Shown here piece after piece: positions 60,001 to 64,000 of a stretch of DNA of 64,000 nucleotides; positions within the stretch are counted from its first letter, which is position 1, and the number at the start of each line of letters is the position of its first letter. The position numbers are program-made. Source of the DNA: Actinomycetota bacterium (lineage in GTDB: Bacteria > Actinomycetota > Acidimicrobiia > Spongiisociales > UBA4744); NCBI GenBank assembly GCA_013152275.1, contig JAADGS010000026.1, forward strand, positions 1 through 64,000. The letters are read 5' to 3'.

Positions 60001-63000
60001 GAACGGTTCACCGTGTCATCCGGAGGGGTCGTGGTGATCGGCAAGGGCGATTCGCTGCACTGAGCCGTCGGTTCTCGGTCTTCAGTCATCGGAAAGAGCC
60101 CCAGTCTTGCCCGGAGGTCGTGCAACGATGCCGGCTGCCGTACGAAGTACCTCTTGTAGGCGAACTCTGTTCGCCTAGAGAACCCTTCGGAAGACCCGAT
60201 GGTTCTTGTGTGGTATCCCTCCGATGTTGATGAGGTCGCGACGCATCTGAACTGCCGTCTCGGCGACCTGAGTCAACTCATATCGGTCGAACCCGGCTCG
60301 CTGGAACACCTCGGCGAGTTCGCGGTACAGGAGGGCGTTGCCACCTCTACGCTGATACTCGGGGAGGATTCCGATGCCGTTGGCAACAACCCAGCTGGTG
60401 GTACGAAGCTCCCTGAGGAGTGACACGGCCGCGAGGGAGAAAAGCCGGCCTCCCATCTTCTGAAGAGAGCCGGACACGTCCGGGAACGTGAGCACGAATC
60501 CGACGGGTTCGTCGTCGCTGGTGACGATGAGCTTGAGCAGGTCCGGTCGAGCCACGGGGATGATCTGCTTGACGACGAAGCTGACTTCCGCGTCGGTGAG
60601 GGGCACGTACTCCCAGTTGTGGACGAACGAGTTGTTGTAGGTGCGTGCGATCCGTTCCGCCCAGCGGTAGATCTCCCAGCGGGAGCGGAAACGGTGGACT
60701 CGGAGCCCTGAACGGCGCGCCGCGCGCTCGGCGATTCTCGGGATACGAGGATCGAGGGAGAACGTCGACGGGTCGATGACGTGGGAGATGAAGTCGATTT
60801 CCTTGACGAAGCCGTTCTCCTTCGCCAGCCGGATGTAGTAGGGGAAGTTGTAGTTGAGCATCGACATCGTCTGGCGCTGCTCGTACCCGCGTTCGAGCAT
60901 GCCGTAGCCATCGAACGGGCTCAATCCTTTGGGGCCGATGACCGCTTCCATGCCTCTTGCCGCGGCCCAGTCGAACGTCCGCTCGAACAGTGCTGCTGCC
61001 GCCTCGGAGTCATCCTCGACATCGAAGAAGTAGAACTCCGCCTCTCGACTGTCGTGGGTCGCGTTGAAGCGGGTGTTCTCGAGCGCGCCGATGCGGCCGA
61101 CGTCTCGACCATCCCGTACGGCGATGAAGAAGTCCGCAACGGAGTGTTCATAGAACGGGTGCTTCTTCGGGTTGAGCATCGTGGCGATGTCCATCTTCAA
61201 CGGAGGTACCCAGAACGGATCGTTTTTGTACAGCCGGTAGGGGAGGTCGATGAAACGCTTCACTTGCGCCCGGTTCGTGACGTCGACCTTCTCGATCGTG
61301 AGCATGTCAGTGCCTTCCTGTGTCCTCCACGGCGAGGTTTCGTGCTTCCCGGATCGCGGATACGACGAAGATCACGATCAGGACCGCGGCGAGAGCCCCA
61401 ATCACCAGGTCATAGACCCCGACGGTACCAAACACGGTGCTGATGTAGGGAATCGGACCGAAGAAGAGCAGAGCGTTGAACCCGATGATGATGGCTCGCA
61501 CTTCGGTGGGTCCGAACCGCCCGTAGGAGATCTGGAACACGCCGCGCACATACGTTGTCAGGTAGACGTAGATGGAAAGGAGCAGGTAGCCCACGAGAGC
61601 GACGGCGGCAACGTTGAACGAAACGTACGGAGAAAGCCCAAGACCGAACGCCACGAGCGTCTCGCTCACACCGTCGACGGCATGATCGACGAAGTAACCG
61701 TACTTTGGCCGTTCGATTCTCCGGTATCTGGCGATCGTTCCGTCGAGGGAATCCCCGAACCAGTTCACGACGAGACCGAAGCTGGCGAGCCAGAGAAACC
61801 ACGGCGAAGCGTTACTGGCCCAGTAGCCGCCGAAGGTCATCAGTGATCCGACGATTCCGATCAGTGTGAGGGTGTCTGGTGTCATCCGCTCGGGCATATG
61901 CTTGGAGAGCCAGCGCAATGCGGGGCGTTCGAGAGGTCCGAGCAGGATGTCGTTGACTCGTTCGTGGGACGGGGACTCGCTCATTCGGCCTCCTCGGCAT
62001 CGGGCCATACCGGGAAGAACATCAGCCACTGCTCGGGGTGGGCACGAATGATGCGCTCTACCTCGGCGAGCGTCTCACGCCACAGCGTGCCGGCGACGTC
62101 GTCCTCTTCTATCTCCAGTGGATCGATCTGACTTCCGATGTTCAGACGGTACCGATCGTCGGGGGTTCGTTCCACCGAGATGATCTGCAGCAGAGCATCG
62201 GTCGATGCCGCGAGCCTGGCAAACCCACTCCACAGGCGTGCGTCCTTGCCGAAGAACGTCGTTGTCTGCGCTCGTTTCCTTGGAGGAGGTGGCCGATCGA
62301 CCGACGTGACCACGACGCCGCCGTTGCGCAGACGGGTTGCAGCTTCTCGCAGCGCATCGCCGGAGGACGGGGTGAGGATGAGTCCTTTGGTGGTCCGCAG
62401 GTCATTCATGAGTTCATAGCCGGATGGGGGGAGCGCGTAGGAAAGAACCTGGATGTCGTAGGTGCCTGCGTGGGGGGAGGCGGCCAAGCCGATCCCGGCG
62501 AGGTCCAGAGTGCTGACGTGTGGGGCCACGATGAGAATCCCCCGGCCGGGACGGTTGGCCGGATCGAGGATCTCCCAGAGTGCCTGCGGCATTTCGACCA
62601 GGCGCCGGTTCTCTTCGATGGTCCCCCCGAGGGCGCGAAAGAAGTCGTAGCTTCCGCTTGCCGCGTGGAACAGGACCTCGTGGACGTAGGAATCGAGTCG
62701 AGGGTCGTCAGGGGTGGTGTCGAGGACGACGGCCAGATTGGCTCGGATCGTTCGTGTGAGCGGCGTGTCGCGACGGGCGATCCAGCGTGTGATCCTTCTG
62801 AGCACGGCGTAGCCGAACCGGCGTGGAACGAGAGCGCTGAGACGCATCGCGAGTCGGGTACCGGTACCTGTGACGAGAAAGTGCTGAAGGTTCACGAACG
62901 ATCGTGTGCAGCGTAGCCGTGTGGTGCTGCGGGAATCCAGGCAGCGTATGCGGGAGACGGAGGCGGACGTCGGCTTCGAGGCATCTCGGGCGGTGGTCCC

Positions 63001-64000
63001 ACGGTTGTACGCTGGTGACTGCTGAAAGGATCACATGAGAGAACCGGCCACACATCTGCACATCGATCACCGGTTGTGTGGTCTGCCCGAGCTGCTCGAA
63101 GAAGGGCGGTCCGAAGTTCGGATGATCACCACCGAAGCGATGGCCGTCGATGACCGAGGGCTGGTGCACGGCGGGTTCATGTTCGGACTTGCCGACTACG
63201 CGGCCATGCTGGCGGTGAACGATCCGAATGTCGTGCTGGGAAGTGCCGATGTTCGCTTCAGGGCCCCGGTGCGGGTTGGTGATGAGGTCGTGGCGACGGC
63301 CAGGACGATGTCGGCCGATGGGCGGCGCCGAGAAGTCGAAGTGACCGTGGACCGTGAGGGAGAGACCGTGATGGGCGGTATCTTCACGTGCTTCGTCTTG
63401 GACCGTCATGTTTTGGAGGGTGACGACGATGCACGGCGGTGACCGCATCGCCCGGGTACTCGTCGGCCATCAGGTCGAAACATTGTTCACGCTGTGTGGG
63501 GGACACATCTCACCGATCCTTTCCGGCGCGAAGGCCGCCGGTATCCACGTCGTCGATACACGACACGAGGCCGCAGCGGTATTTGGCGCCGACGCCACGG
63601 CTCGATTGAGCGGTGTGGCCGGCGTCGCTGCGGTCACCGCCGGGCCCGGTGTCACCAACGCCTTGACAGCCGTCCAGAACGCCTACCTGGCCCAGTCCCC
63701 GGTGGTGGTGCTCGGCGGCGCCGTGGCGACGGCTCTGAAGGGCAGGGGGGCGCTGCAGGACATCGACCAAGCCTCGGTCGTCCGCCCGCATGTCAAGGAG
63801 CTGTTCAGGGCTCGTCGGGTGCGGGATCTCGAACCGATGTTGTCCGAGGCGTTCCGAGTGGCCGTGTCGGATGTGCCCGGGCCGGTATTCGTCGAGGTGC
63901 CCGTCGACCTGCTGTATGCCGAGCAGACGGTTCGCGGCCTGTACCTGTCGGGAGGCGCGCCGAAGAGTCTCGCCGGTCGGCTGACCCGCCGCTATCTGCA

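Follow-up and report, generated by a model that had tools for sequence, protein, structure and literature searches.

The three-gene operon at positions 60175–62895 of contig JAADGS010000026.1 joins a homologue of bacterial ceramide synthase (bCerS) to a CDP-alcohol phosphotransferase and an acyltransferase. This raises the question of whether an actinomycetotal lineage makes a sphingolipid with a head group and, if so, by which route. We analyzed the operon in its window (the whole stretch studied, 64,000 nucleotides from the first base of the contig), in the remainder of the host genome (G000), and in three samples: 19 genomes of the host family UBA4744 (Acidimicrobiia, Spongiisociales), 41 other genomes of the same order, and 151 genomes of a second phylum, Chloroflexota. 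The counts below come from kin genomes that are not independent and have about three to five lineages behind them, and the phylogenies are quick trees with long-branch warnings. Most likely, a conserved set of genes at two loci builds ceramide by a eukaryote-like route and adds a phosphate-linked head group, as predicted from sequence and gene linkage.

Layout and conservation of the two loci

The genes considered here are as follows.

61981..62895, minus strand: LpxL/PatA-family O-acyltransferase, 304 aa (PF03279, E 3.6e-21), first gene of the operon
61307..61984, minus strand: CDP-alcohol phosphotransferase, 225 aa (PF01066), middle gene of the operon
60175..61305, minus strand: tandem GNAT protein of the bCerS/YghO family, 376 aa (weak GNAT match), last gene of the operon
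63035..63442, plus strand: hotdog-fold thioesterase (PF03061), divergent neighbor
63429..64000, plus strand: HACL/ILVBL-type ThDP enzyme, 5' part only, its gene ending at contig position 65144
C16, 18248–19459: alpha-oxoamine synthase (Spt), best PDB match a serine palmitoyltransferase
C16, 19456–20292: SDR, TSC10/KDSR-like reductase, TSC10 tied top among its PDB matches
C8, 73081–74400: sphingosine-1-phosphate lyase homologue, 482 bits to the Symbiobacterium enzyme

All open reading frames named in the genome-wide survey's note, in the window, on C16, and on C8, were found at these positions. The acyltransferase and transferase genes overlap by ATGA, a single base separates the transferase from the GNAT gene, and a purine-rich stretch precedes each inner start. 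A promoter scan gave no signal exceeding shuffles. The ThDP enzyme lies on the opposite strand to the operon, behind the hotdog-fold gene, and its start at 63429 is 2124 bases from the GNAT start, consistent with the ~2 kb given earlier. The hotdog-fold gene is retained by the operon in genera g1, g2, and g4 and not in g3; we regard it as a neighbor and at most a candidate member of the pathway.

The operon is complete in 15 of the 19 family genomes and cut by contig ends in another three; none of the 41 other genomes of the order has a close match. A GNAT orthologue (62–97% identity) is present in 17/19 family genomes and 0/41 others, a sharper restriction to the family than the note had claimed; distant homologues (31–34%) occur in three of the 41. 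The caveat of a transferase more widespread in the class than bCerS did not hold in this sample, with the transferase found in 16/19 family genomes (a contig end cuts it in one more) and 0/41 others. Recent insertion or contamination was rejected on the GC3 of the seven genes (0.74–0.87 versus a mean of 0.77, sd 0.04) and on synteny across the whole host family.

The C16 oxoamine synthase is strongly predicted to be a serine palmitoyltransferase. It scores 429 bits against that enzyme in the PDB and 296 against the next family, clusters with Spt in a tree, apart from the tdh-linked Kbl of the same genome, and contains the PLP lysine motif TFSKS. Its best NCBIfam model is NF047600; the scores fall below the curated cut-offs (NF047600, 524.8/640; NF047599, 421.1/500; NF047603, 325.9/670) of models that are lineage-specific. 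The adjoining reductase matches fungal TSC10 (PDB, E 7e-24) and has both the YxxxK motif and a TSC10-like C-terminal motif; TSC10 ties in E-value with clavaldehyde dehydrogenase, so the sequence alone is not decisive. The "Bacteroides-type" label given to it earlier is not supported by this match: by its published description, BT_0972 shows only partial homology to eukaryotic KDSR (PMC9278070). The reductase lies immediately upstream of Spt in 16/16 family genomes with a full match. Spt is found at ≥70% in 18/19 family genomes and 0/41 others, and the reductase in 16/19 and 1/41; in G013 (96% complete) the latter is reduced to a 26-residue remnant. For Spt, reductase, and lyase, the PDB and NCBIfam matches agree in direction with the earlier Swiss-Prot assignments.

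The candidate ceramide synthase and its Chloroflexota relatives

The predicted fold of the last operon gene product is a tandem GNAT (best Z 23.7, rmsd 3.6, 303 aligned residues). It has no NCBIfam family, and a PDB sequence search gave no real match. Full-length identity of 30–33% links it to genes from Streptomyces, Rubrobacter, and Roseomonas that adjoin Spt or form part of a phosphosphingolipid-type cluster. The protein is the sole member of its family in the host genome, and likewise in each family genome. It is likely a dihydroceramide synthase, and we treat it as a candidate for that role. The survey had called it a Caulobacter-type acylase; instead, it groups with Chloroflexota proteins at 45–59% identity, is ~30% identical to proteobacterial members, and falls in a different clade from the Roseomonas stand-in for Caulobacter bCerS.

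A GNAT-family match is present in 10/10 Spt-positive Chloroflexota genomes. Spt, the reductase, and a close GNAT occur together in five genomes, four of which also encode the transferase. These four are the only ones of the 151 to have it; the acyltransferase gene lies immediately upstream of it in all of them, and in 4/4 the pair lies apart from the GNAT gene. The close GNAT is found in 13 Chloroflexota genomes, eight of which have no Spt orthologue; all eight encode a second, uncharacterized alpha-oxoamine synthase, and neither the reductase (0/8) nor the transferase (0/8). A second GNAT paralogue lies near Spt in G133 and G201, and G106 also has a paralogue. The close clade could therefore have another job, given the eight genomes and the paralogues of G133 and G201. 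The reductase matches in 14 Chloroflexota genomes, nine of them without Spt at the threshold used.

In the GNAT tree, the host-family clade is nested among Chloroflexota rows, and a single actinomycetotal clade is rejected (p-AU 7.8e-7); in the Spt tree, the host family is sister to the four tested Chloroflexota rows that also have the reductase and GNAT. Co-occurrence of the five genes together with the nesting of GNAT suggests a shared, probably transferred module, which most likely entered the ancestor of the host family from Chloroflexota. The set is not peculiar to Actinomycetota: some Chloroflexota share the same five genes.

The CDP-alcohol transferase, the acyltransferase, and the donor

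By profile comparison, the transferase is far nearer human CEPT1 (E 5.7e-15) than mycobacterial phosphatidylinositol-phosphate synthase (PIPS; E 0.012). The signature D78-G82-A85-R86-G96-D100-D104 and H101 are invariant in 48 aligned members. This catalytic histidine is found in 207 of 208 distinct members of the subfamily and in none of the four other transferases of the host genome with a readable motif. In yeast CPT1, the corresponding His118 is required for activity and has been suggested to take the proton from the hydroxyl of the lipid (10.1101/2024.05.09.593427); four residues before the histidine, where CPT1 has its partner Glu, the transferase has Tyr/Phe. The model contains six helices (pLDDT 85), and Foldseek places CEPT1 top, but VIA-align gives Z-scores of 16.7 for DIPPS, 16.6 for PIPS, and 15.2 for CHPT1, so that CEPT does not stand out by fold. 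Proximity to CEPT1/CHPT1 in profile and retention of their catalytic histidine point to a lipid alcohol as acceptor, plausibly ceramide. We describe the protein as a member of an uncharacterized subfamily and a candidate ceramide head-group transferase. Relatives extend beyond the two phyla: 13 of 14 matches in a plasmid collection are from Sphingomonadaceae, where the three loci read contain no sphingolipid neighbors.

Assignment of the transferase as the PI-phosphate synthase PgsA1 was rejected (NF045883, 27.6 bits versus a cut-off of 170), as was that of the acyltransferase as housekeeping PatA (NF005919, 79.4 bits versus 209). The second PgsA1/PimA set mentioned by the survey is indeed on C39, in a housekeeping PgsA1-PatA-PimA context, with scores of 113.7 (NF045883) and 217.9 (NF005919). 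The operon acyltransferase is 25% identical to this PatA, matches PatA structures at E 5e-7, and has an intact HxxxxD motif. Both operon partners are tightly linked to the GNAT gene, as reported, and neither is the housekeeping copy.

Searches with PF01467, PF01633, and PF12804 revealed no CDP donor enzyme that tracks the host family. In the host genome, the only PF01467 matches were CoaD-like or NadD-like, apart from a single weak one; PF01633 gave none (control positive in 7 of 14); and PF12804 gave ten, including a C8 NTP transferase found in 5/19 family genomes and a C6 candidate inositol cytidylyltransferase found in 0/5 relatives tried, with no positive control. No choline kinase or TagD-type enzyme was found in the host genome, and CdsA is present in a single copy. 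As none of the soluble CDP-head-group enzymes found follows the distribution of the family, either a lipid-linked donor or an unrecognized cytidylyltransferase is needed.

Proposed pathway, alternatives, and known systems

In the proposed pathway, Spt would form 3-ketosphinganine by condensation of serine and a fatty acyl thioester, as expected from homology, and the TSC10/KDSR-like SDR, by homology and linkage, would reduce this to sphinganine in the cytoplasm. The tandem GNAT, judging by family and co-occurrence, would then N-acylate the base. In the membrane, His101 of the transferase may activate a lipid alcohol (the C1-OH of ceramide is the most plausible one) onto which a phospho-group would be moved from a CDP donor. 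The donor could be CDP-diacylglycerol, lipid-linked and supplied through CdsA, or the product of the unrecognized cytidylyltransferase. The HxxxxD acyltransferase would add a further O-acyl chain to the decorated lipid. Formation of the sphingoid base and dihydroceramide can be predicted with good confidence, and the transferase and acyltransferase probably act on that ceramide, their substrates being predictions. For the five-gene, two-locus module as a whole to make a decorated dihydroceramide, we estimate a probability of about 0.55. A more specific version is tentative: the transferase would be a bacterial CEPT/CHPT-like family that attaches a phospho head group to ceramide itself and, with a dedicated O-acyltransferase, yields a tri-acylated phosphosphingolipid. 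Insect ceramide phosphoethanolamine synthase reportedly provides a precedent.

The operon might instead serve two pathways, with Spt, reductase, and GNAT making plain dihydroceramide, the transferase and acyltransferase making or modifying a diacylglycerol-based glycerophospholipid, and the GNAT gene merely fused into their operon in the host family. The nearest characterized relatives of the transferase (CEPT/CHPT) do use diacylglycerol, the unit conserved in Chloroflexota is the acyltransferase–transferase pair apart from GNAT, and 47 of 77 metagenome transferase loci, from several groups, have no GNAT gene. We nevertheless consider this unlikely, given the presence of Spt, reductase, and close GNAT in every transferase-positive Chloroflexota genome and the failure to find a choline kinase or TagD-type enzyme in the host genome. 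Moreover, a separate lineage pairs the transferase with another GNAT paralogue, which adjoins it in 30/77 loci (21/37 of those of ≥5 kb). That the GNAT is no ceramide synthase, and acylates another long-chain amine or amino lipid into a sphingolipid-like but different product, is very improbable. Its low identity to proteobacterial members, the co-occurrence of eight of its 13 close relatives with a different oxoamine synthase, and the paralogues in G133, G201, and G106 would fit such a role; it is, however, the only family member in each host-family genome, and Spt and the reductase would otherwise be left without an acylating partner found here.

The survey's own reading had inositol phosphate added by a PIPS-like reaction (for example, from CDP-ceramide or CDP-inositol), PatA-like acylation of the head group, and a dedicated turnover cycle through the lyase and the 2-hydroxyacyl-CoA lyase (HACL)-like enzyme. 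The genome contains an inositol-phosphate synthase on C64 and two YegS-type lipid kinases, the fold scores tie with PIPS and DIPPS, and an inositol-phospho-ceramide-like lipid with no assigned route has been reported from Novosphingobium acidiphilum (PMC9246714). Against an inositol-type head group stand the PIPS score of the transferase, its CEPT1/CHPT1-like profile, the housekeeping set on C39, and a C6 inositol cytidylyltransferase candidate that is not family-wide. As to turnover, the lyase is found in 15/19 family genomes, and alignment with Table 3 of the Symbiobacterium enzyme study (PMC6148460) shows K311, H310, K317, H201, D274, C276, Y105, N126, and Y482 kept and A103, H129, and S353 replaced; two substrate-site residues differ. 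It also occurs at 68–69% in three of four genomes of genus g10, which are without the synthesis genes. The HACL-like enzyme best matches an actinobacterial-type 2-hydroxyacyl-CoA lyase entry in the PDB (E 2.5e-61) and scores 398/587 bits with NF004516 and 290.7 against a cut-off of 600 with NF058623. Its gene is retained beside the operon in several genera, is present in 8/19 family genomes (absent from 11/19), and is found in 0/10 of genus g3. Neither gene tracks the synthesis genes. Neutral ceramidase (PF04734) and a double-His-box hydroxylase also gave no match, both weak tests, as the PF04734 control matched nowhere and the His-box pattern was crude. For the lyase and the HACL-like enzyme, general scavenging is more likely than a dedicated turnover arm, and the reading with inositol and a full make-and-break cycle is quite improbable. 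What stands of the note's sphingolipid set is Spt, a KDSR-like reductase, and a bCerS-family acylase, with the linked transferase and acyltransferase; its Bacteroides and Caulobacter types, inositol head group, and full cycle are not supported in that form.

That Actinomycetota and Chloroflexota have sphingolipid potential has been published before, one paper stating it for Gram-positive Actinobacteria (PMC12134224). Sphingolipid genes in Acidimicrobiia and the CDP-alcohol transferase subfamily were not found in a literature search that covered partly titles and abstract starts, and whose scope excludes the 2022 bCerS paper and the Black Sea supplement, either of which may list Acidimicrobiia or Anaerolineae genomes. 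Known bacterial sphingolipid genes cover the ceramide core, head-group enzymes are known in few lineages only, and sediment sphingolipids are described as abundant, with makers not identified (PMC12619533). The set supplies candidates for head-group transfer and acylation that have relatives in Sphingomonadaceae, which can be cultured, and would be an example of an entire lipid module passed from one phylum to another. The substrate expected for its bCerS-family enzyme is a reduced base, a natural case relevant to the reaction order of the bCerS pathway, an open question (PMC11087976). If the more specific, tentative version above is correct, it would be a third bacterial route beside those of Bacteroides and Caulobacter, with wholly eukaryote-like steps in a single-membrane lineage, spread across Chloroflexota, one Acidimicrobiia family, a soil lineage, and Sphingomonadaceae; the transferase could then explain the Sphingomonadaceae inositol-phospho-ceramide-like lipid that lacks a known gene.

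Several known systems resemble parts of this module. The BT_0972 route of Bacteroides shares the SDR reduction of 3-ketosphinganine; unlike Bacteroidetes inositol sphingolipid clusters, the operon is devoid of genes for MIPS, an NTP transferase, or a HAD protein, and the transferase had no match in 5/5 Bacteroidaceae genomes tried, with no positive control. An alternative route with a CDP-alcohol transferase has been proposed as a hypothesis (PMC9246714); a connection to its Bacteroides cluster was rejected on the same five genomes. Actinobacterial PgsA1-PatA-PimA likewise places a CDP-alcohol transferase beside an HxxxxD acyltransferase, but here both genes score far below the cut-offs, their order is reversed, and PimA is missing. 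CEPT1/CHPT1 are the best sequence and profile matches and share the signature motif with a histidine after the third Asp and an N-terminal juxtamembrane helix. They have ten transmembrane helices, whereas the 225-residue transferase, a core of six helices in the model, lacks the other four and the partner Glu and has Ser at the Ala/Gly selectivity position; no choline kinase was found to accompany it.

The Spt-bCerS-CerR system of Caulobacter crescentus, which has been predicted for several Actinobacteria and is echoed by Spt-GNAT-NAD epimerase operons on Streptomyces and Rubrobacter plasmids, shares the soluble Spt and tandem-GNAT acylase. Here, in contrast, a TSC10/KDSR-like SDR adjoins Spt in place of CerR, and the GNAT is of the Chloroflexota clade and in a separate operon. 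CerR-position proteins of Streptomyces and Rubrobacter gave only partial matches in the host genome (best 38% over 186 of 313 aa). Synthesis of the Caulobacter lipid CPG2 requires the CDP-alcohol transferase CC_1159 (CpgA) (PMC11324152; PMC12275187). Orthology with CpgA was rejected, as a Roseomonas stand-in at the CpgA position is only 28.6% identical over 140 aa (E 5e-4). CpgA–D nevertheless offer the parallel of a bCerS-linked CDP-alcohol transferase that builds a phospho head group, for which the operon enzyme is a candidate; where that system has a ceramide kinase, phosphoesterase, and cytidylyltransferase, the operon described here has a linked O-acyltransferase instead.

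The operon and the predicted sphingoid-base core

The assembly (3.07 Mb in 100 contigs, 100% complete, 0.89% contaminated) carries the module in two places, an operon on contig C71 and a gene pair on C16. The window begins at the first base of C71; the operon and its neighbor there are:

62895-61981, minus strand, LpxL/PatA-family acyltransferase
61984-61307, minus strand, CDP-alcohol phosphotransferase
61305-60175, minus strand, GNAT protein of 376 aa
58837-60063, glgC

The acyltransferase and transferase genes overlap by 4 bases, and a 1-base gap separates the transferase from the GNAT gene; the opposite strand holds genes for a hotdog-fold protein and a ThDP enzyme. 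Reading the translations by eye places ordinary genes for cobalt/nickel transport of the ECF type and a cytochrome c maturation cluster at positions 49390-58070.

The pair on C16, serine palmitoyltransferase (Spt) and an SDR reductase, and the sphingosine-1-phosphate lyase homologue on C8 were located where the genome-wide survey's note had placed them. Among solved structures the C16 synthase comes closest to a serine palmitoyltransferase (429 bits, against 296 for the next family). NF047600 is the NCBIfam model it fits best, at 524.8, below the cut-off of 640. A Kbl-like gene on C30, adjoining a dehydrogenase, is separate and falls in another clade of the tree. The SDR contains the YAPSK motif, and its alignment to fungal TSC10 (E 7e-24) ties with that to clavaldehyde dehydrogenase. 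The 'Bacteroides-type' label it had been given is probably inapt: a passage of PMC9278070 describes BT_0972 as chosen among partial homologues of 16-30%. Proteins in the CerR position of Streptomyces and Rubrobacter Spt operons gave only partial matches in the genome.

The GNAT protein, the only member of its family in the genome, is modeled as a tandem GNAT fold (pLDDT 91; best Z 23.7, rmsd 3.6, 303 aligned). It is 30-33% identical to genes that adjoin Spt in Streptomyces and Rubrobacter or lie in a Roseomonas cluster, Caulobacter-like as inferred from gene content. Plasmid operons of Spt, GNAT and NAD epimerase occur in Rubrobacter radiotolerans (L279, NZ_CP007515.1), followed by an LTA synthase family gene, and in a Streptomyces strain (L278, NZ_CP108712.1), followed by a condensation-domain gene. 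In genus g3 of the family, a QTMAN/DUF3524-type GT4 glycosyltransferase lies ~90-180 bases downstream of the GNAT gene on the same strand in all six regions read (L311-L315, L317); it has no match in the genome under study.

Distribution within the order

The module is real and family-wide. Among 60 relatives, 19 of the same family and 41 of other families, the GNAT gene is found at 62-97% in 17/19 and 0/41, and Spt at ≥70% in 18/19 and 0/41, counting G018, where it is broken over two frames (G018:C16:50261-51165); G010 (88% complete) has none. The reductase lies directly upstream of Spt in each of the 16/19 family genomes that hold it (1/41 others); it is cut by a contig end in G002 and reduced to its last 26 codons, ahead of an intact Spt, in G013 (L305, G013:C9). 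The transferase occurs in 16/19 family genomes plus one cut copy. The triple is whole in 15/19; it stops at contig edges in G006, G008 and G017, and a search of G012 (77% complete) gave no match. The note had itself raised the objection that the transferase might be a PI-phosphate synthase commoner than the ceramide synthase homologue. This objection fails in our sample because the transferase is found in 0/41 genomes outside the family and the true housekeeping PgsA1-PatA-PimA set is located on C39.

Distant GNAT homologues occur in three of the 41 other-family genomes, two of them adjoining their own Spt. The separate Spt-GNAT pair of family f3 (L091, L092; 55-56% and 31-34%) comes from another clade and is a second acquisition within the order.

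The proposed turnover half of the cycle fares differently. The lyase homologue is strong, scoring 482 bits against the Symbiobacterium enzyme and 399 against the human one, and is present in 15/19 family genomes and 7/41 others, three of the seven at 68-69% in a genus without synthesis genes. The HACL-like gene is found in 8/19 family genomes and in 0/10 of g3, though g3 retains the synthesis set. A neutral ceramidase search of the genome gave no match (its control was also silent), and a crude His-box pattern brought up no hydroxylase that could supply these enzymes; two generic lipid kinases are present. A dedicated turnover cycle is thus poorly supported, as neither gene follows the synthesis genes and these two weak searches gave no enzyme for the feeding steps.

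Chloroflexota relatives and probable transfer

The closest relatives outside the order are Chloroflexota, which, including Anaerolineae, have been proposed as sphingolipid producers in passages of PMC11334938 and PMC12619533. Among 151 Chloroflexota genomes, the GNAT family was matched in 26 (13 at 45-55%), Spt in 10, all GNAT-positive, and the reductase in at least 14, only part of the candidates being scored in many genomes. The transferase occurs in four, with the acyltransferase directly upstream in each, and all four are among the five that hold Spt, reductase and a close GNAT (nominal chance 2.4e-7; two of the four are near-copies, and kin are not independent). In G185:C15 (L367), a glycosyltransferase-like gene, judged by eye, lies directly upstream of the acyltransferase-transferase pair.

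Counter to a dihydroceramide reading, 8 of the 13 close-GNAT genomes lack an Spt orthologue. All eight hold a second, unassigned alpha-oxoamine synthase, and none has the reductase or transferase. This synthase, below all NCBIfam cut-offs, occurs in 11/151 genomes, 10 of them with a close GNAT (L383 = G106:C1:1239284-1240489; L384-L393). The association may reflect common ancestry alone; as a guess, the enzyme could make a different long-chain base, for example without the C1 hydroxyl.

Elsewhere, 30/77 metagenome transferase loci outside the family hold a different GNAT paralogue, and these represent one lineage because the six placed in a tree form one clade. A longer cluster in one lineage of metagenome loci (L144-L191, L213) comprises two acyltransferases, GNAT, the transferase, an ELM1-domain protein, GT2 and a 493-aa fusion protein carrying a further CDP-alcohol domain. 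In a plasmid collection, 13/14 transferase matches are from Sphingomonadaceae (45-52%), with no sphingolipid neighbors in three loci read.

The module was probably acquired by transfer. In quick trees of 99 and 36 rows, picked from those fetched, the family GNAT is nested within Chloroflexota; in a separate tree the family Spt is likewise sister to Chloroflexota rows. A single clade of actinomycetotal GNAT rows, a grouping set after the first tree, is rejected (p-AU 7.8e-7, LG+G4). The direction rests on nesting because roots are midpoint only. The module's GC3 is close to the genome mean, which is what an old transfer would leave.

The transferase-acyltransferase pair and known systems

A literature survey of incomplete coverage found no published account of this gene set. 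A passage of PMC12134224 credits several Gram-positive Actinobacteria with sphingolipid potential and terms KDSR-type reduction unusual in bacteria except Bacteroides and Prevotella; whether reduction or acylation comes first is described as under debate in part of PMC11087976. The module's value lies in its candidate transferase and acyltransferase pair. The acyltransferase keeps the HxxxxD motif and could acylate a hydroxy-acyl chain, the head group or the ceramide directly.

Fold searches with the transferase were not decisive. Its profile matches human CEPT1 (E 5.7e-15), CHPT1 (9e-12) and, far more weakly, mycobacterial PIPS (0.012). In 207/208 members a His follows the third Asp; the other readable transferases of the genome lack it. 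The equivalent His of yeast CPT1 is required and proposed to deprotonate the diacylglycerol hydroxyl, in a section of bioRxiv 10.1101/2024.05.09.593427; by analogy, the match favors a lipid alcohol as acceptor, although CPT1's partner Glu is missing here. Linkage and co-occurrence favor ceramide as that acceptor.

None of the candidates searched for a soluble donor enzyme tracks the family distribution. The inositol-type head group proposed by the note is possible because the genome has an inositol-phosphate synthase, with no link to the operon. A NTP transferase on C6 adjoins another CDP-alcohol transferase (L131, G000:C6:4579-6217), IPCT/DIPPS-like by weak scores, and was not found in the five relatives tried. 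An insect CDP-ethanolamine:ceramide transferase is known. Among bacteria, a Novosphingobium lipid resembles inositol-phospho-ceramide and is described without a known gene in a passage of PMC9246714, and Caulobacter, in the portions of PMC11324152 and PMC12275187 that treat it, offers the precedent of a CDP-alcohol transferase in phosphosphingolipid synthesis.
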